Shown piece by piece: positions 22,097 to 55,561 of a DNA stretch of 60,035 nt (position 1 is the first letter of the stretch; each line of letters begins with the position of its first letter). The DNA lies in the NCBI GenBank assembly GCA_013166835.1, contig JABLTI010000004.1, positions 1-60,035 of the forward strand, given 5' to 3'. The DNA comes from Promethearchaeati archaeon. Its GTDB lineage: Archaea > Asgardarchaeota > Heimdallarchaeia > JABLTI01. The notes beneath the pieces were generated by a model. It was given only the letters and a program-made list of their open reading frames with translations. It made no database searches and was not told where the DNA came from. The position numbers and the translations under genes are program-made.

Positions 22097-22156
22097 AAAA
22101 TATCAACATCATTTTATGAAATTTTTTATCTTTTAATGAGATTATGTTCAACTAAT

Positions 22157-22558: not shown

Positions 22559-22725
22559 TTTTCACGCCTCTACTGAAGAAATATTATAACTTTTTACTTG
22601 TTAAACTCTTCTATTCAATAATTATTATTTAATGTTTGTTCTGCAAAAACTAAATGATAATTTTATTAAAAACGGTTAAATTTTTAACCTTTATATGTGA
22701 ATGAGATTTAGTTGGGATTACATAT

Positions 22726-23409
22726 ATGCCTAAAACAACCATCCTTTTAGTTGATTCATCTATTGAGTTAATGCCGTCAAATTTGACTAATAATGAAATA
22801 ATAAAAAGACATGCAAAGAAAAGAGGTAAACAGCCTTCAACAGTCATTCTAGATTCATCATATCATCATAAAGCAATGGTAAAGATTCCTGATTCAAAAA
22901 AGAGAGGTAGACCAGATATTCTACATTTCTGTTTACAAAATCTAATTGGTTCACCATTAGTGAGAAGTAACCCAGGATCAATAGAAATTTATGTACATAC
23001 AATCAATAATCAAATTTTAAAAATAAATCCTGAAACAAGACTTCCAAAGAATTTTAACAGATTCATTGGTCTTATGGAACAAGTATTTAGTAAAAAAGTA
23101 ATTAAAAGCAATGAAAAAACACTCATCGAAATGATAGAGAACACATCCATTGAAGAATTAATAGGAGATATTCCAAAGGAGAATAGATTAATCTTCTCAT
23201 CAAAAGGATCACTAATTAAATTGCCAGAATACTTCATCGACTATGCAAAAAAAGATTTAGTTTTAATAATTGGAGCATTTCCTCATGGTAGTTTTTCCGA
23301 GAAAATTTTGAGAACATCAAATAAAATACTGTCAATTTACCCACAATCAATAGAAGCATGGGTTGTTCTAAATCGTGTTATTTTCTCGAGAGAGATTGCT
23401 ATGCTTTAA
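22726..23409 (+). CDS. nep1: Nep1/Emg1 rRNA pseudouridine N1-methyltransferase
   Basis: LDSSYHH, RGRPDILH, RLPKNFNRF.GLMEQ, IGAFPHG. Confidence 0.94.
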   Translation: MPKTTILLVDSSIELMPSNLTNNEIIKRHAKKRGKQPSTVILDSSYHHKAMVKIPDSKKRGRPDILHFCLQNLIGSPLVRSNPGSIEIYVHTINNQILKINPETRLPKNFNRFIGLMEQVFSKKVIKSNEKTLIEMIENTSIEELIGDIPKENRLIFSSKGSLIKLPEYFIDYAKKDLVLIIGAFPHGSFSEKILRTSNKILSIYPQSIEAWVVLNRVIFSREIAML

Positions 23410-23522
23410 ATCATTTGTTAGGCATTTACATTTTATCAAATCTTTCCGTCAATATTATAGACTACCCAATAATATAAGCGGTGTTTAAAGGATGTTTTTT
23501 GTATTTTATTTAGAGGGGCAAA

Positions 23523-26408
23523 ATGAACAGCGAAGTAAAACAAAAAAATACTAAGAGAAAAAAAATAACAGGTATTATTACTCTTAGTCTATTTATTATC
23601 ATAGCATTTGTTTTCTTATTTCAAATGGAAATAATTAGAGATCTAATTGGTTTTGAAGGATCAATTTCATTAAATTTCAAAAAAATATTAACCTACATGT
23701 TTAGTTCGATAGGAACAATTGGTGTTACTGTTAGTATATTCTTTGCTATTAAATTTGCATATAGAAAAGTTCCACTTCAAGGAGAACTCGTTTCCTCAGA
23801 TGAAATAATCCAGAAAAAGAAATTCTTTCCTCAATACCGAGTTACACATATATTGAAAATAAAAGGTTTGCCTAGAAAATTTATTGAAAAGATGAAGAAG
23901 GACAACTCATCTGATGAATTACTTTATTTGAGAAATTGGGATGTAATAGCAAGTTTAGCTCAAGTTTGTGATGAGATTTCTTTTTGGGTTGTGAAAAATA
24001 AAAATCAGATTCAAATTTATTTTTCAATTTCAGGTTGGAGTTGGTTCACCAAAGAAAAAGCTTCAAAAAAAGCAATCAATAGTGTTTTATCATTTAAGGC
24101 AGCATTTAATAATATTTATCCTTCTATTTTATTTGAAAATGCATCTCTTCAAGATTCAAAGGTCTTGCTTAATGTTATTAACAAGTGTGATTTTGGTTTA
24201 CTTACAAAAGGTATACCAGCTCTCAAAACAAATCAAACACAGATTGATAGATTAATTAATACTTTTAGTTCTATAGGAGAAGATTGCTTCTATGTTACTA
24301 GTTTTAGTGGCATAAGAAAAGGTTCTGAAAAACGACAAAGCTCAAAGACTTTTATTCGGAAAGAAATCAGTAATGAATTTGATAATGATTTTTTTGATTC
24401 AAAGAAAACTGGCCAAAGCAAAATAGGAACATATGCCTTTTCGGAAACTGAAAGTGGTATGCACATAATTTTAGCTGCATTACTAAGTATTTGGTCAGGA
24501 ACACATACTTTTGATGTAGAAAAATTAGGTGATTGCACAAATAAAACATACTATAAAAGAATACAAAAACTTAATCCAATAAAAAATACTCGATTGAGTA
24601 ATAAAACTTTGAGCAGCTTTGTGCATTTACCGGAAAAACCTTTCTTAACTGAAGATACAGGACAGCCTATTTTTGAAATACCTTCTCAAAAAGAAGAAAT
24701 ACATCCTGATATTGTATTAGGTAATATTGTTCAAAATGATCGAATTTTAGATGAATACACAATTCCGCTTGAGAATTTCTTGTTTAATACTGAAATTGTT
24801 GGTATGATTGGTAGAGGAAAATCCTATCTTGTAGCGTCAATTATTGAGCAATTATTAAATAAGAATCTAGGTTGTTTAATTTTTGATTTGAAAGGAGAAT
24901 ATGCAGAATTCTTTGTCAATGATCCAGATGTCTTTGTTTACACAATTGGTAATCCAGCACCGCTAGGAATTAATCTGTTTCAAATGAACTCAAATGATGA
25001 TGTTCAAAATATAATAGCGTTAATTTGTGAAATGTTGACAATTGCTGGATCACCATTTAGTCCAACAATGCTAAATATTTTCGAGTCAGCATTGCAAAAG
25101 GTTACTAAAAGGGAAGAGAAAAATCTAGAAATCTTTATGCATTGCTTGTATCAAAGCTCAGAGGAATATTCAAGCAGCATGAAAACATCATATTCAAGAG
25201 ATTCTATTGATGCTATTCTTAATAGATTAAATTATATTTTTGGGGGAGTGAATTATGAAGTTTTTAGTGCCATGAGTAATACATTAGACTTTTCAATGCT
25301 TGATCAAGGTAAGAAGATAATTCTAGACTTTAGTGAATATCTTAGAAGAGGAGCAAATACAGCCTCTTTATTTCTAGTTTGTAATTTAATTTTACATTTA
25401 TTATCAAAACATGCATCTCAAAAAGGAATCACTAACAGCTTGAGGTATTTAGTTATACTGGAGGAAGCTATGTATTTGATCCCTAAGAGATTTAATCTGG
25501 ATTCGACAGCAAGTATTGGTTATTCAGAACAAAACTTCATAACGGGAAGATCCTTAGGAATTGGAACTATAACAATATATCAACTATGGGATAGTGTGAG
25601 TTCCGTTGTACATGCGAATTCTTTAACTAAAGTTCTATTTAGGGGGGAGGAAACTGAAAAAATCCGAAATGCGATAATTCTAACTGATGAGCAATTTAAT
25701 TATTTACCACACTTACCTGAGAGGAACTTCATTTTAAAGTCAAAAACATTATCAGGTCCTGCTTTAATGAAAACAAAAACATTTGAACGGAGACCATATT
25801 CAAAAAATGAATATTTACAATTAGCGAAAGAAAAATTCAATAGAAGTGGTTTTAGATATGAAATGATATCACAGAATTTACTGGAATTGAGAAAATGTAT
25901 ATTTGAAAAAAGAAATTATAAACCAAAAAAATCTAACTTTGATGCAGTTACTAAAGAGTTTACTAAAAATGAGAAAACTACAAATACTGAGAAAATCCCA
26001 AGAAAAAGACAATTTAATAACTATTCTTGGGAATGGTGTATAAATATATGTCCAGTAAGATACGAGTACAAAGATAAGAGTTCTAATTGGATAAAAGAGA
26101 ATATATGTTTGAAAATACAAGATATTGCTCAAGAAATTTCAAAGCAGTTGATGACAAGACAAGAATTGGGATCAATGATTGATATTTTTGAGAAAAATCC
26201 TGATTATATAACTGAGAAAATTCTGGATTACTATAATGGACACTTTGAGGGCATAAATCCTAAGATGTTAACTTTTTGTACGATAAATCTAATATTGAAT
26301 GACCTTAAGAAGGAATTTAATCTAAGTAATACTTGGAAAAATAACTCATTAGTTAGATTAAAAAGCTCATTGAAAGACAAATCAATATCAGATTATTCTG
26401 TACATTAG
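23523..26408 (+). CDS. membrane-anchored HerA/VirB4/VirD4-like ATPase
   Basis: Two N-terminal TMs, GMIGRGKS, IFDLKGEY, VILEEA, GRSLGIG. Confidence 0.75.
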   Translation: MNSEVKQKNTKRKKITGIITLSLFIIIAFVFLFQMEIIRDLIGFEGSISLNFKKILTYMFSSIGTIGVTVSIFFAIKFAYRKVPLQGELVSSDEIIQKKKFFPQYRVTHILKIKGLPRKFIEKMKKDNSSDELLYLRNWDVIASLAQVCDEISFWVVKNKNQIQIYFSISGWSWFTKEKASKKAINSVLSFKAAFNNIYPSILFENASLQDSKVLLNVINKCDFGLLTKGIPALKTNQTQIDRLINTFSSIGEDCFYVTSFSGIRKGSEKRQSSKTFIRKEISNEFDNDFFDSKKTGQSKIGTYAFSETESGMHIILAALLSIWSGTHTFDVEKLGDCTNKTYYKRIQKLNPIKNTRLSNKTLSSFVHLPEKPFLTEDTGQPIFEIPSQKEEIHPDIVLGNIVQNDRILDEYTIPLENFLFNTEIVGMIGRGKSYLVASIIEQLLNKNLGCLIFDLKGEYAEFFVNDPDVFVYTIGNPAPLGINLFQMNSNDDVQNIIALICEMLTIAGSPFSPTMLNIFESALQKVTKREEKNLEIFMHCLYQSSEEYSSSMKTSYSRDSIDAILNRLNYIFGGVNYEVFSAMSNTLDFSMLDQGKKIILDFSEYLRRGANTASLFLVCNLILHLLSKHASQKGITNSLRYLVILEEAMYLIPKRFNLDSTASIGYSEQNFITGRSLGIGTITIYQLWDSVSSVVHANSLTKVLFRGEETEKIRNAIILTDEQFNYLPHLPERNFILKSKTLSGPALMKTKTFERRPYSKNEYLQLAKEKFNRSGFRYEMISQNLLELRKCIFEKRNYKPKKSNFDAVTKEFTKNEKTTNTEKIPRKRQFNNYSWEWCINICPVRYEYKDKSSNWIKENICLKIQDIAQEISKQLMTRQELGSMIDIFEKNPDYITEKILDYYNGHFEGINPKMLTFCTINLILNDLKKEFNLSNTWKNNSLVRLKSSLKDKSISDYSVH

Positions 26409-26527
26409 TAATCTCACTTAAATCAAATAATACTTTAGGTTAACTCCCCCTTTGAGAGGATTTTTTAATAGGTAAATAATTATGTTGAATGAGTTAATAT
26501 TGACCTTTTAGGGCAAGGGCAAACGCA

Positions 26528-27730
26528 ATGGATGAATTGTTAGAAAAAGAACTAAGAAAACCAACTCTAATTAAAAATCCCAGAGTACTGGATTTAAAAT
26601 ATATTCCAAAAAAGCTTTTACATAGAGAAGAAGAGCAAAAAATGCTTATACAGTATTTTAAACCAGTGATTGAAAAACCGGGAGAGTACTCACAAAGAGT
26701 TTCAATCATCGGAGCAATAGGTAGTGGAAAAACTGCAATTGCTTTGAAATTTGGGGAAATGGTTAAGGTCTATTCGACTCAAAAAAATTTGAACTTAGAA
26801 TATGTACATGTAAATTGTCGTAGAGCTAGATCTGCTTTCTTAACACTTCTTGAAATTGTTCGTAAATTTAATCCACATATACCTGTAAGAGGATTTTCAC
26901 CGGAAGAAATTTTGAATATGTTAACTGAAATTCTCAATAGAAAGAGGCTCTATTTAATTGTAACCTTGGATGAAATTGATTTTGTTATCAGAAAAGATGG
27001 CCCTGATTTGTTATATGATCTTACTCGCTTGACTGATGATGAAATTGATATGAAAGAACGAGTGTCTATAATCACAATTGTAAGAGATATAGCTTTTAGA
27101 ACTATGCTCGATGAAAGTACATTAAGTACTTTAAGACAAAATACTATTTTTTTGGAACCATATACCGAAGATCAGCTTAGAGATATAATAGCTGATAGAA
27201 TAAAGGAAGCCTTTTATGAAGATGTTGTTTCTAAAGAAGCTGCTGACCTTATAGCAGATATTGCATCAAAGAATGGTGATGCGCGATACGCAATTGAATT
27301 ATTGGAACGCGCAGGAATGCATGCGGATCATAGACAATCATTAAAGGTTTTACCAGAACATGTTCGTCATGCAAATGCATCTATCCATCCAGTCATTAGG
27401 CAAGAAATCGTGAAAGATTTAACAACACAACAAAAATTAATTCTTCTAGCAATTTCAATAAAATTAAAGACAACACAGAAAGCATATACTACAATGGGAG
27501 AGGTGGAAGAAACATATAAGAGACTATGTGAAGAATTCACTTTTCCGGTTAGAAGTCACACTCAATTATGGGAATATATTCAATATCTTCAAAATTGTGA
27601 TGTAATTACTACTAAGATTAGTAGTAAGGGACAAAGAGGGCAAACTACGCTAATCGGATTACCAGATGTCTCTGCAGAAAAAATTGAGAACGCTATCAGG
27701 GAGCAGTTGGAGAAACAGGCAGATAAATAA
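26528..27730 (+). CDS. cdc6: Orc1/Cdc6 replication initiator
   Basis: YIPKKLLHRE, GAIGSGKT, VNC, LDEID, GDARYAI, C-terminal wHTH with GQRGQT. Confidence 0.95.
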   Translation: MDELLEKELRKPTLIKNPRVLDLKYIPKKLLHREEEQKMLIQYFKPVIEKPGEYSQRVSIIGAIGSGKTAIALKFGEMVKVYSTQKNLNLEYVHVNCRRARSAFLTLLEIVRKFNPHIPVRGFSPEEILNMLTEILNRKRLYLIVTLDEIDFVIRKDGPDLLYDLTRLTDDEIDMKERVSIITIVRDIAFRTMLDESTLSTLRQNTIFLEPYTEDQLRDIIADRIKEAFYEDVVSKEAADLIADIASKNGDARYAIELLERAGMHADHRQSLKVLPEHVRHANASIHPVIRQEIVKDLTTQQKLILLAISIKLKTTQKAYTTMGEVEETYKRLCEEFTFPVRSHTQLWEYIQYLQNCDVITTKISSKGQRGQTTLIGLPDVSAEKIENAIREQLEKQADK

Positions 27731-27766
27731 TATAATTACTATTTGTGAAAGAGGTAGACAATCTAG

Positions 27767-28141
27767 ATGTATAGAGATACAACACATCGTTTGAATGAAA
27801 ATAAAGCAGAAACTGCAGAAGATGAGCTTATACAAGATTATGCTGAAAAAGAAATCGAAATCATAGATTTTGGAATAGAAGACGTTCTCTCATCAAGAGG
27901 ACGAATACTAATTCTCAAGACACTCGCTGAGATGGAAGAGCTAAATATTTCTGCAATTGCTAGAGTAGCTAATTTAAATCATAGTACAACAACGCAGCAT
28001 CTTAGTTTTTTAACAAAAGTAGGTTTGGTACAAGAAAAAAAATTCGGACGTATTAAGATTTTTAGATACAAAATAGAAAATGTAAAGGCTCGCTCATTGA
28101 AAAGATTGTTTGAAATATGGAAAAATGAAAACAAGTATTAA
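27767..28141 (+). CDS. ArsR-like winged-helix protein
   Basis: SSRGRILILK..LNISAIAR..LNHSTTTQHL..GLV. Confidence 0.8.
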   Translation: MYRDTTHRLNENKAETAEDELIQDYAEKEIEIIDFGIEDVLSSRGRILILKTLAEMEELNISAIARVANLNHSTTTQHLSFLTKVGLVQEKKFGRIKIFRYKIENVKARSLKRLFEIWKNENKY

Positions 28142-35031: not shown

Positions 35032-36090
35032 CTAAAAAAGCATCGGAAATCGAGATTCGGGTTCATCGATTTCTGAATCGCTTTCAGGAACGATTTCTTT
35101 TATCTTTTCAATTAATTTCTCTTTCAGTACAGTTCTATGATGATCACGAATTGAATATTCGGCTACATTGCATATATCAGCTAGAGCTTTTTGAGTCAAA
35201 ATTTGTCTATGCGCGCTTATTTTTCCGATTATCCGATCTGCACAGTAAACAACGGATACTGCGAAGATATATGGATTTCTTCCGCCTCTTGCTCTAAGAT
35301 TAGTTTCGCAAAGAATCTCCCTGGATAATTGTATAAGTTTATTTTCATATTCCTTCTTATTAACTTCAAGTTGTTTAAGTCGTCCACAGACTTCTAGGTT
35401 CTCGACTATTGATGAAGTGATTCGTTGTAAATAATCTTCACTTTTTCGAATTTTTAAGGAGACACCTAATTCTGAGGGAAGTATTTGTGCTAGCTTCACG
35501 ATAGATTTTCCACTTACTCGATGACCAAGATCCTTAAAAATATTAACGATTTCGCTTAACCGAATTGGGGCATTCGAAGCAGACTCTCTTATTGAAACCA
35601 TTAAACATAAAGCTACTAGAACAATATGATTAGAAATTTTGTTTATTTTCTTACTGTTCTCCGCAGTAGTAACTATTTTGTACAAATACGCAGCTCTCTT
35701 CTTTACTCCGTCAGATATTCCGAGATATCCAGATACCCGATTAAGACTCATAAGTGATCTATAATCTGTCTCATGATTTCCTATCTTAATCCTCAGATTG
35801 TATTTTCTTTTTAGTTTTCTGAATTTGTATTGTTCCTTAGATGGTAAGATAGATCCTTTACCGTCATGAAAATAACCATCATTGTGATAACCTATATAGC
35901 TTCCAAGGCCATCAACAATATGAACTCTCTTGCCAGGAGACATTTCATGATCCCAAGGGATATGAGAATCGTTTTTTTCCGAAATTATTACAGAATTATT
36001 AACGACACCACAATCAGAACAAACTAATTCACCTCTCGTTTGTATAAGAGGGCCATTACAATGTTTGCATAATCCATTATTCTTTTCCAA
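35032..36090 (-). CDS. tfb: divergent transcription initiation factor IIB paralog
   Basis: CKHC...GELVCSDCG Zn ribbon, two cyclin folds, GRNP...A, TQK.LA....VAEYSIR. Confidence 0.8.
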   Translation of the reverse strand: MEKNNGLCKHCNGPLIQTRGELVCSDCGVVNNSVIISEKNDSHIPWDHEMSPGKRVHIVDGLGSYIGYHNDGYFHDGKGSILPSKEQYKFRKLKRKYNLRIKIGNHETDYRSLMSLNRVSGYLGISDGVKKRAAYLYKIVTTAENSKKINKISNHIVLVALCLMVSIRESASNAPIRLSEIVNIFKDLGHRVSGKSIVKLAQILPSELGVSLKIRKSEDYLQRITSSIVENLEVCGRLKQLEVNKKEYENKLIQLSREILCETNLRARGGRNPYIFAVSVVYCADRIIGKISAHRQILTQKALADICNVAEYSIRDHHRTVLKEKLIEKIKEIVPESDSEIDEPESRFPMLF

Positions 36091-36230
36091 TTTAAGAACA
36101 CCAAGATTATCAACACAAAAAATTCATTTTTACCTTCTTGAGTTAAAATATTCTCTTAAAATAAGATGACATTCTATTAATATGATAAAGAACAAGCTTA
36201 AGCTTATTCTCATATACCTAAATGTGGGGA

Positions 36231-36247
36231 AGATGACCGAAAGTATT
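36231..36247. promoter_or_regulatory. 17-bp motif AGATGACCGAAAGTATT, copy 2
   Basis: Identical to 19256-19272. Confidence 0.55.
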
Positions 36248-36265
36248 CCTGGAAGGAAGAATAGT

Positions 36266-36338
36266 GTTGGGTCAGATTTCTATTATAGGTCATCGCAATA
36301 AAGCATGCTCTTCCAAATGCCTTCCCATCATACCCAAC
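36266..36338 (-). ncRNA. box C/D methylation-guide sRNA
   Basis: Terminal stem GUUGGG/CCCAAC, box C-like AUGAUGG, C'-like CGAUGA, box D CUGA. The guide AAGGCAUUUGG is complementary to the LSU rRNA motif CCAAAUGCCUU (recalled from memory). Confidence 0.7.
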
Positions 36339-36394
36339 AATATAAAGTAGTATTAGGTGGAATAATAATATTCTTAAAACTAAAGAAAAAGTCT

Positions 36395-36589
36395 TCAGGG
36401 ATTCAAACCTTGAAGTTTTTCTGAGACATCTTGAAAAATGTTTTGTGTAAATCCAAGAATATCTGATACAATAGCAACTAAGAGAACAAAGGCAAACAAA
36501 GCAAGACCAATTAATATACCCTCCTCAATTAAGGGTGAAGCTCGATGATCCTTTTTTAGCTTCTTTAAAATAAATCGTCTTTTTCTCAT
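36395..36589 (-). CDS. Flp-like type IV pilin
   Basis: Basic leader, RA/SPLIE class III signal peptide with Glu at +5, hydrophobic helix; upstream of Tad-like genes. Confidence 0.75.
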   Translation of the reverse strand: MRKRRFILKKLKKDHRASPLIEEGILIGLALFAFVLLVAIVSDILGFTQNIFQDVSEKLQGLNP

Positions 36590-36656
36590 GATATTTCCTC
36601 AATAGAAATATCACATCTTATATTAAAAACACCACTTTTTTTAAAAAATAAATTAA

Positions 36657-36734
36657 TGGTGCCCCGACCGGGATTTGAACCCGAGTCCACGACTCGAGAG
36701 GCCGTGATGATTGACCGAACTACACTACCGGGGC
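36657..36734 (-). tRNA. tRNA-Glu(CUC)
   Basis: Cloverleaf GCCCCGG...TCGGGGC-A-CCA, anticodon loop CT-CTC-GA, T arm GGTTCAAATCCC. Confidence 0.95.
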
Positions 36735-36810
36735 ATAATATTATTTTATCACAAGTAATTATTTACATTAAATGATTTTCTATTATTGTGCAATTAGAAA
36801 GAAGGGAAGA

Positions 36811-37371
36811 TTAAGCACTTAACCTTGTTTCCCAATCCATAGCTTTTTCTAGGAGATCCTGTTTGTCACTCGCTTGAAAATCATTGTCTCCTTTTCTAAT
36901 TAAACCATTACCTATTCTACGAATTTCATAGAAAACACGGCTAAATGAAAAGCTTGATTCAATCTGTTCTAGAGCTTCGATTAAGATTTCTCCAGCTTCC
37001 TTGAATTTTTCCGATTCATTTATTTTCTTAGTTAAATCAACAAAAATAGGATGTTGTGCATCGGTCGTTGTAGTATATTGTGCAGCATCAGCAATTACTT
37101 CTTTTGTTGTTGTTTTAGCTTTTTCTTTTACAACTTTCTCAGCTGTTGGTTGTTTAGGCATTTTTTCGACTTTCGTTGAAAGAGTTTCTACTTTGTTACC
37201 AAGATTGGTTAATTGTGAATTTATATTAGTTAAACCAGTTCCAAGTCCATCAATTGAAAGATGGATATTTTCAACGGTTTTTTTTAACGAATCTAAAGTA
37301 GTATCAATCTTTGTTAGAACTTCTATCATTTGAGTAAATGTTTTTAGAAATACATCATCTTCACTTGACAT
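36811..37371 (-). CDS. coiled-coil hypothetical protein
   Basis: Heptad-rich N-terminus and helical C-terminal domain. Confidence 0.7.
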   Translation of the reverse strand: MSSEDDVFLKTFTQMIEVLTKIDTTLDSLKKTVENIHLSIDGLGTGLTNINSQLTNLGNKVETLSTKVEKMPKQPTAEKVVKEKAKTTTKEVIADAAQYTTTTDAQHPIFVDLTKKINESEKFKEAGEILIEALEQIESSFSFSRVFYEIRRIGNGLIRKGDNDFQASDKQDLLEKAMDWETRLSA

Positions 37372-37565
37372 TAAATCATCTCATATTCTTTTGTATATCA
37401 GAATAATTCGTTTCCATTATTATTTATTCCCATTTAGACATTTTTTGTTTTATAATCTAAGATTTGTCAGTTAAATCCACTCAAGAATACCGACACTTTT
37501 TTAATAAAAAAAATGTTATCTAATAATTAGTTCTAGAAATAAGAAATACATGTATTACAGAATGG

Positions 37566-38531
37566 GTGAAATCATTGTCAGGAATCCAAAAAAAAGTATC
37601 ACCTTTTACCAAGCATTTTGAGGCTAGAAAAGAAATCCTAGATTCATGGATAAAACATATGGAATTTAGAAGAAATCCTTTTTTGGGATTTACATTACCA
37701 AATCCAGAATTATTAGTGGAAATGTCTGAATTCCTTGAATCATTAGTAGATATTGTTGTATCAAATGAAAGACCTGCAATATTCTTGCGAGGTCCTGTAG
37801 GTGTCGGTAAATCAACTCATTTAATTTTAATTCGAAGAGACATACAAAATTTACAAGATCTAAATGGTAATGCCTTTAGAACTGCTTATATTGATAGATC
37901 AGGATTACACGCTCGACAATTTGCTAGATTATGCGCAATTGGTTTTAATGTGAAATTCAACAAAACTGATGATTCCGATGAAATAATGGATTCTGTAGGA
38001 AAAGACATTATAGAAAAATATGAAAAAGAAAAAATAAGATCAGTTTTGTTAGCTGAGGATATAAGTGAAAATCAACATGAGATTTTTAGTAAGCTTCAAT
38101 ATTTAGCTGATTTGAATGCAGAGAAAACTGAAGAACCAATTGCTACAATTATTATGACTGGAACTAGTGAATATTTCCAAGCATTAACTGCAGTTTTACC
38201 ACAGATAGCAGACAGAAGCGAACCAATAGACGTTCCCCGATTTGAATTGAAACATTCCCGTGAATTCATTGGAAGAAGAATAGCTTATGCAAAAGGGGAA
38301 ATCAGTAGTTTTGATATCAATGATTTTTCCATTTACCCTTTTGAGGAAGATGCTGCAAAGATTTTGGCTGATAGCTCACAAGGAATACCTAGAGATTTAA
38401 GATTGTTATGTAGAGCCGCGGTTAGCGTTACTGCAGATGATCTCTTACGAAAAGAAGGAAAAGGTGAAATTACTTACGAAATTGCAAAGGTTGTCTCAGA
38501 GTACTATCAATCTTTCTTAAGTGAAGTATAG
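37566..38531 (+). CDS. AAA+ ATPase (ExeA/Cdc6-like clade, no C-terminal wHTH evident)
   Basis: FRRNPF, Walker A GPVGVGKS, degenerate Walker B LLAED, IADR, YPF, GIPR sensor. Confidence 0.8.
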   Translation: MKSLSGIQKKVSPFTKHFEARKEILDSWIKHMEFRRNPFLGFTLPNPELLVEMSEFLESLVDIVVSNERPAIFLRGPVGVGKSTHLILIRRDIQNLQDLNGNAFRTAYIDRSGLHARQFARLCAIGFNVKFNKTDDSDEIMDSVGKDIIEKYEKEKIRSVLLAEDISENQHEIFSKLQYLADLNAEKTEEPIATIIMTGTSEYFQALTAVLPQIADRSEPIDVPRFELKHSREFIGRRIAYAKGEISSFDINDFSIYPFEEDAAKILADSSQGIPRDLRLLCRAAVSVTADDLLRKEGKGEITYEIAKVVSEYYQSFLSEV

Positions 38532-38595
38532 AATATCTGAGTAATATTTATATTTCATGTATTACAAGTATTAATTACAAAAGAAGGTAAATGAG

Positions 38596-38925
38596 ATGAG
38601 CTTGTTACAGAAATATAGAAAAGATGAAACCAGAAAAACTTCTACTGAAGAAGAAAGAAAAACAATTAAACAACCACCAAAGAAAGAAGAAAAACCCATA
38701 GCTCCAAAAGAAAGTGTAAAGAAAGCTGAAAGGAGAAAAGTTGAAGGTGGACCAGGTATAAGAAGTAGACCAGTGATCTCAGCTACCGTAAGATCAGAAC
38801 TAGTTGATGCATTAAACACTTTAACAGATGAAAAATATTTGAATAGATCAAAATTTATAGAAGATGCATTAATACGAACAATAAAAACGGAGTTTCCTGA
38901 TATAGCATCAAAATACGGATTCTAA
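38596..38925 (+). CDS. RHH DNA-binding protein with a disordered charged N-terminal tail
   Basis: PVISATVRSELVDALN......NRSKFIEDAL; about 55 aa K/E-rich tail. Confidence 0.8.
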   Translation: MSLLQKYRKDETRKTSTEEERKTIKQPPKKEEKPIAPKESVKKAERRKVEGGPGIRSRPVISATVRSELVDALNTLTDEKYLNRSKFIEDALIRTIKTEFPDIASKYGF

Positions 38926-38931
38926 TTAAAC

Positions 38932-39834
38932 ATTATTACAGCTATTTCAAGTATTACATGTATTACAAATAATTCATGTAATATTGATTATTATTATTTT
39001 CATTTTAATTACATGATCTAAGACATAAAAATCAAAAATTAAAACTTATTCTAAATAATAATCTATATAATATTATATAGGTACATAGGATATATTATGT
39101 ATTACTTGTAATGCAAGTAATATAATAGATATTTCAACGTTTTGATAATATAAAGAGTGAACAGGGGTACATATAGGTACACATTTTGGGATATTATAGA
39201 ATTAGCATAATAGTAATGCATATAATATTGTGTGTATGATAAATAATATTTGTAATACAAGTATTATTTATATTTTAAATAATTCAAGTATTGTGAATAT
39301 TAGTAATATTACTATCCTATTTAAATAAATCCTAGATAATATCCGTTAGGACAAAAGTTTGGGAGAAAATAAATATTCCTCACTTATTTCGGCAATTCCT
39401 CATCATTTGGAAACATTACGACGTTGGATCTAATTAATAAGAATTAATTTTTAATGTTAAAAATATTAAGAATAATACAAGTCATACATGTAATACAGTA
39501 GACAACTTGTTATCTGAAAAAACAATCTTTTAGTAATACTTTGTACTAGTTTCTGATGAAAACTAACGTATTTTTAATTGGTTTTTATCAAAACCATATA
39601 ATTAAGCTAAAATCAAGGCTTTATCTCAAGTAATAGTCTAATATTATTCAATTAAGCAGGATTATTCTATATCATATACCATATAAATTGATATTTTCAT
39701 ATTTTTTGTGCCTGAAATTAACTAAAAGCTAAAACTTGAAATAATAACCCGATCAATTTTATATTTCTAATGATTTCTGAGTGTATAACATCATATTTTA
39801 TGTATTATGTATTATTTGTAATACAAATATTACT
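38932..39834. repeat. arrays of tandem 9-bp TGTA(T/A)TACA-like units
   Basis: Clusters at 38932-38985, 39098-39124, 39242-39295, 39471-39497 and 39808-39834; further copies at 37551, 38558 and 40524-40550. Confidence 0.85.
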
Positions 39835-40024
39835 TAAATTGTCTATTTTTATAACAAAAGGGCGATGTTTTCGTGAAAAATGCCATGTTAGCAATTATAG
39901 ATTTTATGGACAATATGTCGGATTATGAAGGAATATTTAGACATTTTTTCAGTTATTCATGATAAACGGAAACGTTTTATAGTCATAGTTAATAGTCGTA
40001 TTATATTGTATACTTGGTGATTCG

Positions 40025-40528
40025 ATGAGTAAAATTGAAATAAAAGATATAAAGTTAAGAGTTAAAGAAATACAAGAGAATCCAATAATTAAATTATTTT
40101 ATGAAGATGCTAAATCTACAGGTAAAGGCTCGAAAGAGTGGACAAATCTTACCAAAATACAGCTGGAAACTCTAATTGTGGATCTTGTTACAGATGAAAT
40201 AAATCCAAAACTTGGTTATTTGGAAAGAGGGAAATTAAGAGGAGTCACTAAAAGATCATTTTATAGGACATTAGAACAAGCTAGATTGAATCTAATAAGA
40301 GCAATTTTTACAATAATGGTTGCAGCATTTCTAAATATAATAGATTCACCGAGATTATCAGATTTCAATGAATTATCACAAAACTTCCTGGATTTGGTTA
40401 CTATTAATAACTTGGAAAATCAAACTCCTGAAGAAAAAGAGAAATGGATAAAAATCTATACAAAAATGATATTTGATAATGTACAAAATCTTAAGAAACA
40501 AACAGCTTTAGCAAATCAAGATAAGTAA
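40025..40528 (+). CDS. helical putative DNA-binding protein (HTH/Tfx-like)
   Basis: LTKIQLETLIVD...RGVTKRSFYRTLEQAR..LIRAIFT pattern. Confidence 0.55.
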   Translation: MSKIEIKDIKLRVKEIQENPIIKLFYEDAKSTGKGSKEWTNLTKIQLETLIVDLVTDEINPKLGYLERGKLRGVTKRSFYRTLEQARLNLIRAIFTIMVAAFLNIIDSPRLSDFNELSQNFLDLVTINNLENQTPEEKEKWIKIYTKMIFDNVQNLKKQTALANQDK

Positions 40529-40563
40529 TGCTTGTAATACATATATTACACAATCACCTTAAT

Positions 40564-42885
40564 TTAATCTTTAACTTTCAACGCTGCAATTATTGCTTGA
40601 CCACTACTGATACTACCATCTCCACATGGCAAAGATTTGTGCTGTAAAAATTCCAAATTGGCGGTATTTACCTTTTTGGCTATTTGACGACTGATTATAT
40701 CATTGTAGGCAACACCACCTGTAAAACCAATTTTCTTAATAGAATTAGATAATGCATAGTCAATTGCTGAGTCTGCAAATTGATTTGCTAAGTAATGATG
40801 AATAGCTAAGGCAATATCAGCGGGTTGCTTATCTGAGATTAAATATTCATAAGCTTGATATAACATTGAAGTTGTGTTGATTATTCCAGAATTCTTTTCA
40901 GGTAAATCAAAAACTATTTTTCCTAATCTACCTTTATGGGCTAATGCTTCGAGAATTATCGCTGGTTCTCCCTCATATGTTCTTTCATAACAAGCTTTAA
41001 GCAAAGCACTTGACGCAGCTAAAATTCTGCCTGTGCTTGTAGTATTGAAAACATTTATTCCTTTTTTTAATTGCGAGAGAACTACTTGTATTTCATTTTC
41101 TCCGCCGGGCAAACTATTTGGATAAATATTCAATAGCAAATCAGATAATTCATTTTCGGAGAACCTTTTTGATAAAATACCTACAACCATTCTAATAGGA
41201 TAAAAGGTAGCACGATCTCCACCTATCATTGATTGTTCTTCGAGATGTCCTATTCTTTTAAATTCTGTATAGGAATTATGAAAGATTTCTCCACCCCAAA
41301 TTTTACCATCGGAACCATAACCAACTCCATCAGCAATAATTGATATTATTTCTTCTTCTTTTGGTACTTTATTATCTAACATTAAGGTAGTAGCATGAGC
41401 ATGATGGTGCTGTATTCTAAATAGTTGAGCATCATGTTCTTTCCTGTATTTCTCTGCTAATCTTGTAGAGAGAAAATTAGGATGCAAATCACTTCCAATT
41501 GAATCATAGGAATTTACATCTAATAATGAAGTCATGTGATTTATAGCCGATTCAAGAAAAGCAAGAGTTTCAAGAGTATCTACATCACCGATAAATTGAG
41601 TAGGAAAACATCGATTTGTTTTAGCGATTGCTCCTGTTGATGTTAAAAGTGGTCCAACACCTACTGAAGAAAGCTTGCCTAGATCAAATGGGAGATTAAT
41701 AGGTTCTGGAACCCAACCTCGAGATCTTCTAATTAAAACTGGATTATCATTAGCAAAACGTACAACGCTATCATCCGCACGTTGGAAAATTCTTCTATTA
41801 TGTAACAAAAAATAATCTGCAAGTTCACCTGTATTTTCTAGGATCTCATCATTTTCAATATACATTGGAATTTCGGAAGGATTCGCACTTGTTAATATCA
41901 ATGCCGGATCTTTAATTTCATCTAGAATTAATGAATGAATCCCAGAATATGGGAGCATTACGCCTACATTAAATAATTTTGGAGCAATCCACTCTGATAA
42001 AGGAAAAGGTACTTTTTTCTCGAGTAATACAATGGGTCTTCGATAACTTGTTATTATTTCTTCTTCATTGGTATTGACTTTCGCATACTTCTTCACATCT
42101 GTAATTGAACTTGAGATAATAGCAAAAGGTTTGTATTTCCTTTTACCTTTGCGGGTTCTTAATTTTAATATCGTTTCATCGTTATTTACTGAGCATGCTA
42201 AATGAGTGCCACCTATTCCCTTAAGTGCTATTATATTCCCTTCAGAGATTAATTCACTAATTTCTTTGAATATATTTTGTAATTCTAATTTTTCCCCATT
42301 TTTATTATAAAGTGATAATGTTGGTCCACATCTAATACAGCAAGTAGTCTGTGCATGATGTCGACGATCAAGTGGATCATTGTATTCTTTACTACATGAT
42401 TCACAAAATGGAAATTCTATCATAGTTGTATTAGGTCTATCATATGGAAGTTTAGTGATTGTTGTATAACGAGGTCCACAAATCGCACATGAAGTAAAGG
42501 CATATTTGAATCGATAATCTTTACGATTTTCCATATCACTTAAACATTTTTCACAAATAGAAATATCAGGCGGAAGGTAAGAAACACCTCCAATTTTTCG
42601 TTTTGAGCTTTTTTGAATCTCAAAAATTGAAAATTCATCTTGGGAACTACTCCAAGTAACTTGAAAATCCTCATACTTGGCTAAATAAGGCTTATCGTAC
42701 TTTAAAGAATCAACAAATTTCAGAAGAACTTTCTTTAATCCCTCAGCTACGATTAATACTCCAGCATCACCTTGGTTTCTTACAAATCCTGTTAATCCTA
42801 ATTTCATTGCCGTTTGATAGACAAAAGGTCGAAAGCCAATGCCCTGAACGATACCACTACAAATGACTTTTACTCGAGACCTCAA
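40564..42885 (-). CDS. hypF: carbamoyltransferase HypF
   Basis: GIVQGIGFRP acylphosphatase domain, Zn fingers with CGPRY, KGIGG, QHHHAH, DGVGYG, PCGDG. Confidence 0.96.
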   Translation of the reverse strand: MRSRVKVICSGIVQGIGFRPFVYQTAMKLGLTGFVRNQGDAGVLIVAEGLKKVLLKFVDSLKYDKPYLAKYEDFQVTWSSSQDEFSIFEIQKSSKRKIGGVSYLPPDISICEKCLSDMENRKDYRFKYAFTSCAICGPRYTTITKLPYDRPNTTMIEFPFCESCSKEYNDPLDRRHHAQTTCCIRCGPTLSLYNKNGEKLELQNIFKEISELISEGNIIALKGIGGTHLACSVNNDETILKLRTRKGKRKYKPFAIISSSITDVKKYAKVNTNEEEIITSYRRPIVLLEKKVPFPLSEWIAPKLFNVGVMLPYSGIHSLILDEIKDPALILTSANPSEIPMYIENDEILENTGELADYFLLHNRRIFQRADDSVVRFANDNPVLIRRSRGWVPEPINLPFDLGKLSSVGVGPLLTSTGAIAKTNRCFPTQFIGDVDTLETLAFLESAINHMTSLLDVNSYDSIGSDLHPNFLSTRLAEKYRKEHDAQLFRIQHHHAHATTLMLDNKVPKEEEIISIIADGVGYGSDGKIWGGEIFHNSYTEFKRIGHLEEQSMIGGDRATFYPIRMVVGILSKRFSENELSDLLLNIYPNSLPGGENEIQVVLSQLKKGINVFNTTSTGRILAASSALLKACYERTYEGEPAIILEALAHKGRLGKIVFDLPEKNSGIINTTSMLYQAYEYLISDKQPADIALAIHHYLANQFADSAIDYALSNSIKKIGFTGGVAYNDIISRQIAKKVNTANLEFLQHKSLPCGDGSISSGQAIIAALKVKD

Positions 42886-49580: not shown

Positions 49581-50516
49581 ATGTCTAAAGAAGATTTTCA
49601 AGAAGAAAAAGCTCAAATTGTATGTTCTGAATGTGGATCGTCAGATATCATTAGTGATTCAACAAGAGGAGAAAGAATATGCACAAATTGTGGCGCAGTA
49701 ATTGATGAGCACATTATAGATGAAGGGCCTGAATGGAGAGCTTTTACATCAGAAGAAAGAAACAAAAGAAGTAGAGTTGGTTCCCCAACATCTTTTGCAG
49801 TTCATGATAAAGGTCTAGCAACTCAGATAGGATGGGAAGATAGAGACGTCTATGGTAAAAAACTATCACCAAGAAGAAGAGCCCAAATTTATAGATTAAG
49901 AAAATGGCAAATTAGAACAAGGGTTCACTCATCAATGGACAGAAATTTAGCATATGCTATGAGTGAGCTAGACAGATTAAGCTCTCAGATTGGTATACCA
50001 AGAACTGTGAAAGAAACTGCAGCAGTAATTTACCGGAAAGCAATCGAAAGACATCTAATTCGTGGTAGAAGTATTGAAGCAATGATAGCAGCAGCTGTTT
50101 ATGCAGCAGCTAGAATTAGAAGAGTTCCAAGAACATTAGATGAAATCGCTAAAAACAGCAGAATTTCCAAAAAAGAACTTGGTAGATGTTACAGGTTAAT
50201 TATCAGAGAATTGCAAATACGTATTCCTTTAGCAAATCCAAATGATTATATTATAAGATTCAGTGCTGAGCTTAGATTATCTGGTCATACAGCACAAAGA
50301 GCAATAGAAATCATAGATCAAGCTAAGGAAAATGGTCTTACTGCAGGTAAAGATCCAACAGGATTAGCAGCTGCATCAATATATATAGCTGGAATCATCG
50401 AAGGCGAAAGAAGAACTCAAAGAGAAATCGCAGAAACCGCTACTGTTACTGAAGTTACTGTCAGGAATAGATACAAAGAACTTGTACGAAAATTAGGGAT
50501 TGAAATAACAGTATAA
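49581..50516 (+). CDS. tfb: transcription initiation factor IIB (canonical)
   Basis: CSEC..CTNCG, GPEWRAF, RLRKWQ, RGRSIE, GKDPTG, TEVTVRNRYKE. Confidence 0.97.
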   Translation: MSKEDFQEEKAQIVCSECGSSDIISDSTRGERICTNCGAVIDEHIIDEGPEWRAFTSEERNKRSRVGSPTSFAVHDKGLATQIGWEDRDVYGKKLSPRRRAQIYRLRKWQIRTRVHSSMDRNLAYAMSELDRLSSQIGIPRTVKETAAVIYRKAIERHLIRGRSIEAMIAAAVYAAARIRRVPRTLDEIAKNSRISKKELGRCYRLIIRELQIRIPLANPNDYIIRFSAELRLSGHTAQRAIEIIDQAKENGLTAGKDPTGLAAASIYIAGIIEGERRTQREIAETATVTEVTVRNRYKELVRKLGIEITV

Positions 50517-53910: not shown

Positions 53911-54276
53911 TTACCCTGCACTCTTAGGTTCAAGCTCAATTGAAAGTAAGTCTTCGCTATCTTCAATGACTTGTACTGCTGCCGAAGGAGCTACTACAGT
54001 GTATTTTGCATCATTATTTTGAGGTAATTTTTTGAAGAACCTTCTAGATTCTGTAGGACCACGATTCCAATTGAAAAACTCAACACCAATAAAGTTATCA
54101 AAATCAATAACCATCATGGTTTGTTTTATTAATTCAGCTTGTTCTTCAGATGTTAATCCACTTTCAATAATTAAGACTCTATTCTGTCGTACTAAACGAA
54201 TAATCATCTTAATTTTCTCAAAAGGAGTAAGTTTATCTGTGGCATTTTTGGTAATAAAATCTACGTAATACTTCAT
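53911..54276 (-). CDS. oapB: origin-associated protein B (DUF2073 family)
   Basis: EKIKMII..V....VLIIESGLTSEEQAELIKQTM..I..DNF.G.E; downstream of oapA. Confidence 0.75.
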   Translation of the reverse strand: MKYYVDFITKNATDKLTPFEKIKMIIRLVRQNRVLIIESGLTSEEQAELIKQTMMVIDFDNFIGVEFFNWNRGPTESRRFFKKLPQNNDAKYTVVAPSAAVQVIEDSEDLLSIELEPKSAG

Positions 54277-54285: not shown

Positions 54286-54897
54286 TCAAGACATCTTCTT
54301 AATTGCTTCATACAATGCACTAACATTGTCCCCTGTTTTAGCAGAAACAGCAACAATCATTTGATCAGAAAATGTTTGCCGTACTAATTCAGGTCGTGAA
54401 TCAGGGAGATCAGTTTTGTTGGCAATAATAATAATTGGAATTTTTTGTAATTGTAAATTCCCAATGATTGTTAAATTAACTTGTTCAAAGGGTGTTTTTG
54501 TGGAATCTAAGATTACTAGTGCAACATCAACTTGATCAATCATTTTTATGGCTTCAAGAATTCCTTTCGTAGCTTCTTTTGCTCTCTGTATGGCTTCGTT
54601 TTCTGTTAACCCGAATTTTACAAAATTACGATAGTCAACAGTCGTAGCTATTCCTGGCATATCCATTAAAGTAAAATTTAATTCATAGCCATCCTTTTTT
54701 AACCGTGCATTCTCTAATTTGACTACTTTTCGCGTTTCATGTGGTATCTCAGATACTGGACCTAAGTCTTCATGACCTAGATCATTGGCAATACGATTAG
54801 CCAAAGTAGTTTTTCCTGCATTTACCTCACCGTAAAACGCAAGTCTTATGTCTTTTTTCTTTTTTCTACTGAGGATTTTGCTAATCCAATTAGACAA
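54286..54897 (-). CDS. oapA: origin-associated Era-like GTPase
   Basis: GEVNAGKTTLANRI, SEIPHETR, DMPGIAT.VDY, RAKEATKG, NKTD, SAK. TTG start at 54897 follows GGAGG. Confidence 0.85.
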   Translation of the reverse strand: MSNWISKILSRKKKKDIRLAFYGEVNAGKTTLANRIANDLGHEDLGPVSEIPHETRKVVKLENARLKKDGYELNFTLMDMPGIATTVDYRNFVKFGLTENEAIQRAKEATKGILEAIKMIDQVDVALVILDSTKTPFEQVNLTIIGNLQLQKIPIIIIANKTDLPDSRPELVRQTFSDQMIVAVSAKTGDNVSALYEAIKKMS

Positions 54898-55374
54898 ATA
54901 TAGACCTCCATTACATAATAACAAGCTAAGTAGAACAAAATAAGCACATAAGAAGTGTTATTATCTACATATTTTCCTCATAAGATTTCGAGAAAAAAGT
55001 TAGAATTTTTACAAGTTATTCACGGAAATTGTGTATACACGTGAACACAGTATACACTATATACACAGTATATACAAGATATCCGTTGAAAAGTTAATAA
55101 ATCAATATTTTACTCGAGATACTAATAGGGAAAGTAATGAAAAAGCAGGATCTTAGTATTAATAAGCTGTAAATTTATACTATTTTTATCATATTTACTC
55201 AAAACAATGTATATTATTTGTAAAAATTAAAGATTTTTTGTATAATTGATTAAGAAAAGAAGGTTTCTCTGGCTTTCTTTTCACAAAAGGACAATGTTCT
55301 CCTATTCTTTTGTGAATTCACAGATTTTCTGTGAACGTGTGAACAAAACAGGAAATATCTGTATCTAGTTTGAT

Positions 55375-55396
55375 TTTCCAGTGGAAATTAAGGGGT
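55375..55396 (+). promoter_or_regulatory. canonical ORB
   Basis: TTTCCAGTGGAAATTAAGGGGT matches the archaeal ORB dyad plus G-string. Confidence 0.9.
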
Positions 55397-55540
55397 TTTA
55401 ATAAATGATAATAAGAAAAGAGTATTTTTGTCGGGTTATTTTCTTTTTTTGTTAAAAGAAATTTAGTGTTCACAAATAAACAAATAGTTATTCACAAAAT
55501 AAGGGTTTCTGACTGCTCTTGGATCAAATTTTTAGTACCT

Positions 55541-55561
55541 CCCCATCTCTTCTATTGGAAC
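55541..55561 (-). promoter_or_regulatory. ORB
   Basis: GTTCCAATAGAAGAGATGGGG on the minus strand. Confidence 0.75.

Follow-up and report, generated by a model that had tools for sequence, protein, structure and literature searches.

A compact chromosomal module that joins a predicted AAA+ ATPase, a predicted ribbon-helix-helix (RHH) protein with a long N-terminal tail and a third, helix-turn-helix-like protein of 167 amino acids (p167) to phased arrays of a 9-bp DNA box is described here from a 60,035-nucleotide stretch of contig JABLTI010000004.1 of the Promethearchaeati archaeon assembly GCA_013166835.1 (hereafter the window). The arrays occur at this one locus of the assembled genome, keep their positions in related genomes and lie near a candidate replication origin; the three genes recur together in other Asgard lineages, and the type of box changes where the β-strand of the RHH protein changes. 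Our favoured reading, attractive to us although somewhat short of an even chance, is that of a nucleoprotein domain near the origin which is centromere-like, subject to autoregulation and served by an AAA+ partner. It develops the proposal of an earlier note on this DNA, which had seen in the locus a candidate partition system.

The repeat unit is a 9-bp pseudo-palindrome, (A/T)GTA(A/T)TACA. Its strict form TGTAWTACA matches the window eight times, compared with a mean of 0.72 in 100 dinucleotide shuffles (maximum 4; none of the 100 reaches 8). Seven of these matches start at 37551, 38558, 38959, 39251, 39489, 39817 and 40533 (span 37551-40541), and the eighth (17282) lies inside the RPA-like open reading frame (ORF) 16893-19040. 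Parsing in 9-bp phase yields eight clusters with about 31 units in total (Table 1), and Tandem Repeats Finder (TRF) reports arrays of period 9, 18 and 27 at 38551-38573, 38934-38980, 39233-39312, 39473-39497 and 39794-39820. The phased clusters claimed in the earlier note are thus more pronounced than it had stated, and the six units that it counted behind the RHH gene are recovered by the parsing. The array that it placed right after the third gene does hold three units, but overlaps the stop codon of p167 rather than following the gene.

The surrounding assembly (3.56 Mb in 260 contigs, 33.7% GC, with the window as contig C106) contains 30 TGTAWTACA sites, 7 of them in this 3-kb stretch, and no other pair is spaced by less than 1.5 kb. 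For the core 7-mer GTAWTAC, which occurs 413 times genome-wide, the richest 3.2-kb interval is this locus with 10 matches, followed by a runner-up with 4. All 10 phased double boxes of the assembly (GTAWTACNNGTAWTAC, i.e. GTAWTAC-NN-GTAWTAC with at most one mismatch) fall within 37543-40549, and the reversed control pattern gives five matches on five different contigs. Counted over the whole genome, the arrays are therefore confined to the locus and not scattered, as the partition proposal had implied. As the assembly is about 85% complete, this uniqueness is claimed for the assembled sequence only; single-contig genomes of other lineages show the same array picture.

Table 1. Predicted genes, box clusters and conserved non-coding elements of the module, and the candidate origin (positions in the window).
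Feature	Position	Strand	Description
Promoter-like element ACCGACACTTTTTTA + A/T run	37489-37510	+	upstream of ATPase gene, ~40 bp before cluster A
Box cluster A	37542-37559		2 phased 9-mers (AGAAATACA TGTATTACA), between promoter element and ribosome-binding site
Predicted AAA+ ATPase	37575-38531	+	318 aa from TTG 37575; ExeA/TniB/ORC-like, without winged helix
TATA-like TTTATATT running into cluster B	38546-38575
Box cluster B	38549-38575		3 phased 9-mers, 21 bp ahead of RHH start codon
Predicted tailed RHH protein	38596-38925	+	109 aa; invariant N-terminal peptide, K/E/P-rich linker, C-terminal ribbon-helix-helix
Box cluster C	38932-38985		6 phased 9-mers, immediately 3' of RHH stop codon; position kept in genus
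Perfect 18-bp palindrome CTATATAATATTATATAG then GTAC	39063-39084		in gene-free gap, before cluster D; nearly invariant in 6 genus loci
Box cluster D	39098-39124		3 phased 9-mers; position kept in genus
Box cluster E	39242-39313		~8 phased 9-mers, partly degenerate; TRF period 9/18/27 at 39233-39312
Box cluster F	39471-39497		3 phased 9-mers
Box cluster G	39801-39843 (phased part 39808-39843)		3-4 phased 9-mers + one 7-bp offset copy; position kept in genus
Putative p167 promoter region	39940-40013	+	GACATTTTTT 39940-39949, BRE/TATA-like GGAAACGTTTTATA 39968-39981, GTCGTATNATATTGTATAC 39995-40013 just before ribosome-binding site
Degenerate box pair	39995-40013		ahead of p167
p167	40025-40528	+	167 aa; sigma-70 region 4 / DUF134-like helix-turn-helix signature
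Box cluster I	40524-40550		3 phased 9-mers; overlaps p167 stop codon, faces hypF 3' end; kept in genus
Candidate canonical oriC	54924-55856		0.93-kb gene-free stretch beside GTPase (54286-54924) and OapB (53911-54276) genes

The three genes run rightward and are flanked by two leftward ones, a coiled-coil gene (36811-37371) and hypF (40564-42885). In five of six loci fetched from the same genus the order is pilus-type ATPase, TFB-like gene, small gene, coiled-coil gene, ATPase, RHH, gap, p167, hypF, 494-aa gene and uvrC; the sixth lies on a short contig that stops just past the RHH gene. Order, gap and array positions are kept in all loci that reach that far, so that the synteny in relatives, which the earlier note had named as a check, is found, with protein identities ranging from 51% to 99% across the fetched loci. 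The gap between the RHH gene and p167 (38926-40024; 1.1 kb, 22.7% GC, with stretches between the arrays of 12% GC or less) measures 1.10-1.15 kb in these relatives and holds no ORF conserved among them. As the locus tags of the RHH and p167 homologues are consecutive at NCBI, no gene is annotated in the gap of those metagenome-assembled genomes (MAGs). An Rfam scan of 36000-41000 brought only a tRNA gene to gathering score (36660-36734, minus strand, 49.3 bits), which lies to the immediate left of the module, flanked by a 64-aa ORF and by the coiled-coil gene. The only sub-threshold Rfam match in the gap, a histone stem-loop at 39575-39621, scored 23.3 bits against a gathering score of 34 and was taken as chance.

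Alignment of the non-coding DNA shows that the arrays hold their position while the DNA between them has diverged, even where the proteins are about 96% identical. Ahead of the ATPase gene, ACCGACACTTTTTTA is identical at 15 of 15 bases in all six same-genus loci, with diverged flanks, and may represent a TFB-recognition element (BRE) with its TATA box. GAAATAC(A/T)TGTATTACA of cluster A and GTAATATTTATATTTCA(A/T)GTA(A/T)TACA(A/T)GTA(A/T)TA of cluster B are likewise kept in six of six, as are the blocks ahead of p167, for which we propose promoter and operator roles. For the palindrome in the gap, a pair of divergent TATA boxes is one guess. Double boxes concentrate at the locus throughout the genus (11 of 12 in genome G010, 11 of 11 in G005, 10 of 10 in G003, 9 of 9 in G001 and 15 of 17 in G009). 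At least one double box is found past the end of p167 in relatives (G010:C6:94676, G009:C47:48350, G005:C69:49495, G001:C416:10017, and also on G011:C221), a position expected to be within the coding sequence of hypF; in the window, hypF contains just one box core, at 42024.

The ATPase gene most likely starts at TTG 37575 rather than at the listed GTG 37566, because a relative has a stop codon in the GTG frame and GGGTGA (37562-37567), which overlaps the GTG, resembles a ribosome-binding site. In Pfam the product reaches 19 bits on AAA_22 (PF13401), below the cut-off of 27, besides matching ATPase_2, AAA_16 and, weakly, TniB. Among 22 scanned homologues P0064 (34.4 bits), P0069 (52.8 bits), P0073 (59.9 bits) and more distant ones pass the AAA_22 cut-off, P0063 reaches 26.4 bits, and P0061 has no match, its links in the Atlas being to its Thor orthologues and AAA_22 clusters only. 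NCBIfam adds a weak but near-full-length match to the ExeA-type family TIGR03015 (30.5 bits, residues 30-281). The nearest solved relatives by profile are DNA-loaded AAA+ proteins: the family profile finds ORC1 (E 1.6e-4, residues 67-309), TnsC (weak, 155-293), ORC4, RFC and also Cdc6 in the PDB, with ORC1 and ORC4 as the best full-length ones. The hhalign comparison with the window's own Orc1/Cdc6 reaches 58% probability (E 1e-4) at 19% identity. The Walker A motif GxGK, D179, R214 and R273 are invariant and the Walker B region is acidic; the catalytic residues of an AAA+ protein are thus predicted to be intact. The protein ends after the lid, with no match to Cdc6_C or Cdc6_lid in Pfam or NCBIfam, and its match to TIGR02928 is limited to residues 49-109 (15.2 bits, cut-off 181.3). 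Judged by the missing winged helix it is not an Orc1/Cdc6 initiator. No CbiA/ParA family appears among its Pfam or NCBIfam matches either, and from its profiles (AAA_22, ATPase_2 and TIGR03015; ORC1, TnsC and RFC in the PDB) it classes neither as ParA or actin, in keeping with the earlier note, nor as tubulin. The gene is single-copy in the window genome, and the family is small, with 61 matches at E≤1e-3 and 11 at E≤1e-10 among 1.84 billion representatives.

The RHH assignment of the second protein is suggested by Pfam RHH_1 (PF01402; E 0.008, 16.5 bits against a cut-off of 20.5, residues 61-93 on model positions 2-34 of 39), and its homologue P0053 carries a precomputed PF01402 match. Across 27 aligned Heimdall and Thor sequences the N-terminus MSLL(Q/G)KYRK(D/E) is invariant or nearly so, with L4, K6, Y7 and R8 strictly invariant; the tail has about 58 residues, with a linker of variable length and sequence, and is followed by a conserved core. 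The gene set of an AAA ATPase, a long-tailed RHH protein and repeats on their promoters, from which the earlier note had set out, is therefore present as described. The third gene, p167, had been left unexplained there. It shows the conserved pattern LTxxQLETL ... GV(T/S)(K/R)xxFxRxLxQARxN and matches Pfam DUF134 at E 0.046, some homologues are named DUF134/UPF0251 by their sources, Atlas links lead to Sigma70_r4, and the profile finds nothing below E 0.2 in the PDB; these weak matches and source names point to a helix-turn-helix protein.

Genes for all three proteins are found together again in Thorarchaeota and in no fewer than four further Asgard families. When 400 Asgard genomes were scanned with a profile, 121 gave ATPase matches at E≤1e-10. 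Eight of the ten other genomes of the genus encode the ATPase, and within the window's class the RHH protein is found in exactly the same eight; p167 is present in seven of these, as a fragment beside boxes in G011, and in one relative of 38% identity. Close homologues of the window proteins are labelled Heimdallarchaeota or Asgard MAGs by their sources. Strong ATPase orthologues occur in 78 of 89 genomes of the Thor-containing group and in the families f13 (5 of 5), f14 (5 of 6), f26 (3 of 3) and f27 (4 of 4). Among species representatives, a scan brought up ATPases of 41-44% identity in genomes that carry the label Thorarchaeota and in one described as 'uncultured archaeon'. The RHH gene lies immediately downstream of the ATPase gene at four of these six loci (tblastn), p167 is nearby at all six and hypF at five, in other arrangements. 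At eight of eight further loci of other lineages p167 lies within a few kb of the ATPase gene, which makes it the most constant ATPase neighbour across the Asgard lineages. ORFs for tailed RHH proteins follow the ATPase gene in f14, f13 and f27 (β-strands TNFNVRMP, NFNVRLP and VKISLWIP). The gene hypF is close to it in f13, f14 and Thor; inspection of the f26 and f27 loci, over 19 kb, did not reveal it. The ATPase had no match in plasmids, and none of 158 pattern matches in viral contigs was confirmed.

A box domain found once per genome surrounds the module in Thor, f14 and f13 as well. In Thor genomes, double boxes with the GTAWTAC core lie on the ATPase contig in 8 of 8 cases in G083 (7 of them within 9 kb), and at the locus in 9 of 10 cases in G084 and 5 of 5 in G085; in the single-contig genome G371, 8 of 9 fall within 11.7 kb around the ATPase gene, with a control count of 0. 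Besides intergenic DNA, the Thor boxes occupy hypF and an acetyl-CoA-synthetase-like gene, and such positions inside coding sequence are a poor fit to plain promoter control. Outside the domain or at its edge, the same double-box-like 16-mer recurs in all four genomes (G083:C17:177863, G084:C54:77575, G085:C16:248841 and G371:C1:54380); as it falls inside a gatE-like ORF in G083, it was taken as a probable coding-sequence coincidence. In the sister-genus genome G011, 4 of 4 double boxes lie on a contig of 2.5 kb that also carries hypF and the terminal part of p167. Genomes free of the module have none (G006), two on two contigs (G008), or five each spread over megabases (G016 and G077).

In G119, G117, G306 and G303, GTAWTAC double boxes are unclustered. 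The f13/f14 domain is built instead of GATATC boxes about 13 bp apart, and the RHH β-strand of these families reads NFNVR(L/M)P versus PVISATV or PIVSFSI in the GTAWTAC lineages. The 19-kb locus of G119 contains 31 GATATC sites (shuffle mean 6.4), 28 of them outside ORFs of at least 90 aa, and in this complete genome 9 of 10 GATATC-N5-9-GATATC pairs lie within the 11.4 kb that hold orc1/cdc6 and the ATPase gene (control 2). Further pairs at the locus were counted in f14 (5 of 6 in G121, 3 of 3 in G122) and in f13 (4 of 4 in G114, 4 of 5 in G115, 3 of 4 in G116, 3 of 6 in G117 and 1 of 3 in G118), where one box group lies inside the ATPase coding sequence. For f26 and f27, k-mer enrichment gave only weak candidates such as GAAATAC. 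The box type, GTAWTAC or GATATC, thus changes where the RHH β-strand changes, which is the best available indirect evidence that the tailed RHH protein reads the boxes.

The distance of about 15 kb from oriC stated in the earlier note agrees with the position of an ORB-bearing canonical oriC beside the OapB gene (ORB, origin recognition box). This candidate has a perfect ORB core at 55376, TTCCAGTGGAAAT with GGGG a few bases downstream, which is one of two perfect matches in the genome, as well as an inverted ORB-like pair (55550-55580 / 55677-55707) around an AT-rich stretch. It is also rich in short repeats of the GTGAAC/TTCACA type, and similar TTCACA-type repeats surround the ORB of G083:C17 (~154.7-155.0 kb). 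The window's Orc1/Cdc6, with both a Cdc6_lid and a Cdc6_C domain, is encoded at 26528-27730. The distance between orc1/cdc6 and the ATPase gene is 10 kb in the genus, 2.7-5 kb in G117, G119, G306 and G303 (from the best-scoring orc1/cdc6 copy), and 25-35 kb in three Thor genomes. Throughout, an orc1/cdc6 gene or an oriC of the ORB type is found 3-35 kb from the module. G083 has a single perfect ORB core, at a distance of about 5 kb from its box domain, and in G084 an inverted ORB pair around an AT-rich stretch lies about 1 kb from the domain with single boxes on its flanks. Between orc1 and the ATPase gene, G119 has a 3.2-kb stretch free of ORFs that contains three ORB-like elements as well as a dozen GATATC boxes. 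In the window, a search with up to two mismatches found ORB-like elements neither in the gap nor in the DNA ahead of the ATPase gene.

According to the reading we favour, the 9-bp boxes would be the binding platform of the tailed RHH protein encoded within the domain, whose dimers would sit side by side on neighbouring boxes; in omega, ParG and MetJ, rows of RHH dimers occupy tandem boxes of 7-8 bp. Binding at clusters A and B and at the pair before p167 would shut off the ATPase-RHH operon and p167 and so provide autoregulation. Binding at the five or six promoter-less gap arrays and at the array after p167 would assemble a large protein-DNA complex as a mark of the origin region. The tail, which is flexible and basic and ends in the invariant MSLL(Q/G)KYRK, would contact and stimulate the ExeA/TniB/ORC-like ATPase, and the tails of ParG and omega are known to stimulate theirs. 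Centromere, adaptor and NTPase would then work like ParABS type Ib or SegAB in positioning or segregating replicated origins, with an AAA+ engine in place of ParA and p167 as a third constant component. A known way for an AAA+ protein to do a ParA-like job is given by MuB, TnsC and TniB, which coat DNA and are switched off by a peptide of their partner; MuB even makes ParA-like diffusion-ratchet patterns on DNA when MuA stimulates it. We rank this reading first because it accounts for the arrays without promoters, the boxes inside Thor genes, the restriction to one domain per genome, the link with the origin and the conservation of the tail peptide.

Compared with the type Ib systems ParF-ParG (TP228) and delta-omega (pSM19035), the likeness consists of a small RHH protein whose N-terminal tail is flexible, short boxes that adjoin one another in tandem arrays at several spots including the own promoter (autoregulation), and an NTPase gene directly upstream of the adaptor gene. 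The NTPase here, however, is an AAA+ protein of the AAA_22 / ExeA-TniB-ORC kind and not a deviant-Walker-A ParA, and the module is chromosomal and origin-linked and has a third, helix-turn-helix-like protein and a 9-bp unit. SegAB of the Sulfolobales is an archaeal chromosomal system too (PMC12139799 and PMC8682754). According to PMC12139799, its operon is immediately preceded by short repeats ([AGNGTNN]x3), whose complete site is found only once in the chromosome, and an origin is no more than a few per cent of the genome length away. In layout, an NTPase gene, a tailed adaptor, repeats on or around the promoter, uniqueness in the replicon and closeness to an origin are shared with SegAB, but SegA is ParA-like, and its one triple repeat compares with about 30 boxes here, grouped into 8-9 arrays that extend over 3 kb (10 kb in other lineages). 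No sequence relation to SegAB was detected. As a ParA-type NTPase is absent, the module is not a member of the type Ib or SegAB families, and a literature search, in sources available in part, turned up no AAA+-based system and no report that combines an AAA+ ATPase with a centromere-binding RHH protein in archaea.

Several observations weigh against the centromere-like domain. To our knowledge, no AAA+ protein is known as a partition NTPase. The module is found in 0 of 135 genomes of family f20 and was not found in 71 of the 82 other genomes of the window's class at the thresholds used, so it is not a general Asgard requirement; most of the compared genomes are incomplete MAGs. In the Thor genome G084 the reversed control gives 13 matches, more than the observed double boxes, and in G122 the control count is also 3, so that in these two genomes only the clustering is unusual. 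The f13 domains, with only 4-8 boxes within about 2 kb, look more operator-like. Further possible box binders are the small CdrS/aCcr1-like RHH proteins that this genome encodes in the window (19439-19600) and on contig C54, and the box itself is practically that of the transcription factor aCcr1 (see below). Finally, the f14 boxes that share a gene-free stretch with ORB-like elements point to replication as much as to segregation. From the partition proposal of the earlier note, the layout, the uniqueness, the closeness to the origin and an NTPase other than ParA or actin stand, against which are set the aCcr1 box and the interleaving of f14 boxes with ORB elements, which make origin control and plain regulation serious rivals.

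The nearest rival, which we regard as possible but rather unlikely, is control of the origin. The AAA+ protein, with the RHH protein, p167 or both as DNA-binding subunits on iteron-like boxes beside or within oriC, would act as an auxiliary initiator or loader, as a sequestration or titration device for timing, or as the protein that starts replication at a second origin, independent of Orc, within the AT-rich gap of 1.1 kb. In its favour are the leaning of the ATPase towards ORC and the f14 arrangement, along with the closeness to orc1/cdc6 in the genus and in G117, G119, G306 and G303, the single boxes flanking the ORB pair of G084, and the low GC content of the gap with its even poorer stretches between arrays. 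Orc1/Cdc6 systems resemble the module in their repeats in AT-rich, gene-free DNA by the gene, at or near oriC, and in the initiator-like profile matches of the ATPase. These matches are weak, however, Pfam and NCBIfam pointing rather to an ExeA/TniB-type AAA_22 protein without the Cdc6_C winged helix. The boxes are unrelated to ORB, no ORB-like element was found in the gap of the window or ahead of the ATPase gene, and the genome has an ordinary Orc1/Cdc6 and, 15 kb away, a complete canonical oriC with ORB elements and oapB. The spread of Thor boxes over about 10 kb including coding DNA is also unlike iterons. Bacterial ParAB likewise regulates initiation, and the centromere-like domain, origin control and plain regulation, which we rank in this order, are not mutually exclusive.

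Plain regulation, which we hold to be unlikely, would make the tailed RHH protein or a small aCcr1/CdrS-like one a transcription factor, with the arrays as operators through which the genes for the ATPase, the RHH protein and p167, as well as unannotated gap transcripts, would be repressed very tightly or in time with the cell cycle, the job of the ATPase being unrelated. It is favoured by the identity of the box with that of aCcr1, a 58-aa RHH cell-cycle repressor of Sulfolobales. The box forms given in PMC9976878 and PMC9976892 are A(T/G)G(A)TA(G)A(T/G)TACN, AGTATTA and the ccr-2 box TGTATTAT; read as AGTAATACN, AGTATTA or TGTATTAT, they are practically the same as (A/T)GTA(A/T)TACA. In these papers the aCcr1 boxes lie between the TATA element and the start codon, a placement that is shared here by clusters A and B and by the pair before p167; cluster D follows the conserved TATA-like palindrome, and the fold predicted for the tailed protein is RHH as well. 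As described there, though, aCcr1 has 58 aa, no tail and hundreds of dispersed promoter sites, compared with 109 aa, a conserved tail, an ATPase partner and phased arrays at one locus here. The predicted protein is accordingly longer than, and not one of, the aCcr1/CdrS-type RHH-only proteins of about 50-60 aa, and hhalign suggests likeness to aCcr1 only at the generic RHH level (40 columns, 25% probability, against gp29 of Acidianus two-tailed virus (ATV), which was taken as an aCcr1 homologue by gene order). CdrL, the 'long' RHH protein of haloarchaea, carries a zinc-ribbon domain and is a different protein (PMC7439475).

Plain regulation would further draw on single boxes 9-90 bp upstream of some 20 other genes; genome-wide, 42 of 202 WGTAWTACW sites are intergenic by a crude ORF call. 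Scanned by Pfam, however, these 20 downstream genes share no common function and include no cell-division genes, and the idea of a regulon was dropped. Phased double boxes occur nowhere else in the genome, five or six arrays are not followed by a gene or conserved ORF, the Thor and G011 boxes inside hypF and other coding sequences fit operators poorly, and the origin linkage across lineages is left unexplained. As for the small RHH proteins, a genome search with the viral aCcr1 homologue found as best match a 49-aa RHH ORF on contig C54 (19560-19709), which has a single box about 150 bp upstream, and as second the 53-aa ORF 19439-19600 (plus strand), whose clear small RHH pattern (MRTISLGIP...NRSDVLRQAIEELL) lies in a 570-bp gap after the RPA-like gene. 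Both may be the true CdrS/aCcr1 counterparts.

That the three proteins regulate or assist the neighbouring hypF in hydrogenase maturation is improbable: hypF adjoins the module or lies within a few kb in four lineages (Heimdall genus, Thor, f13 and f14) whose gene orders differ, and hypD is present in the window as well, but the ATPase, RHH protein and p167 of f26 and f27 do without hypF in their 19-kb loci, nothing in the three proteins resembles known Hyp factors, and with boxes inside it in Thor and G011 hypF looks like a passenger in the domain. Least credible of all is that a TniB/TnsC-like ATPase and an RHH protein acting as antitoxin, a common role of RHH proteins, form a toxin-antitoxin pair, a defence system or the remnant of a mobile element, as the weak TniB and TnsC similarities would suggest; the module is single-copy and chromosomal with conserved synteny and, in contrast to MuB/TnsC/TniB systems, shows no transposase, integrase or other sign of mobility nearby, no relative was found in viral contigs and plasmids (ATPase) or in phage records (RHH protein, tblastn), and PADLOC gave no match for the ATPase or RHH protein and one weak match for p167.

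Elsewhere in the window, DNA-handling genes are dense at 45-7571 and 16893-28141, encoding Rad50-like and Mre11-like proteins, HerA with a likely NurA partner, a multi-OB RPA-like protein, a second HerA-domain protein of 961 aa, Orc1/Cdc6 and an ArsR-type helix-turn-helix protein. Beside the Rad50-Mre11-HerA cluster, a 157-nt inverted repeat (7779-7935 / 9819-9975, 89% complementary) brackets a 575-aa ORF (7977-9704) without Pfam match, and the segment thus bounded could be mobile or invertible. The TFB-like gene that keeps synteny with the module across the genus (35032-36090, minus strand) encodes a divergent 352-aa copy with a TFIIB-like zinc-ribbon pattern at its start and no Pfam match at E 1e-5, in addition to the standard TFB with TFIIB repeats and zinc ribbon at 49581-50516.

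The ways in which chromosomes are organised and separated are not known in Asgard archaea, the closest known relatives of eukaryotes. With some doubt, we consider it possible that the module represents an ancient, origin-anchored chromosome-handling machine of a new class, composed of lineage-specific centromere-like boxes, a tailed RHH adaptor, a helix-turn-helix protein and an ORC/TnsC-like AAA+ engine, and common to Thorarchaeota, one Heimdallarchaeota genus and at least four more families. If true, it would add a further NTPase type of DNA segregation to the ParA, actin-like and tubulin-like ones, or couple origin firing to origin separation. With three small proteins, a 9-bp box (6-bp elsewhere), natural specificity swaps and a fixed place beside oriC, it is a compact, testable candidate that can be reconstituted in vitro without culture. 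Should the ATPase respond to the RHH tail on box DNA, this would reveal a new way to build a segregation or origin-control machine, and the aCcr1-type cell-cycle box of Sulfolobales would then also be linked to chromosome mechanics.

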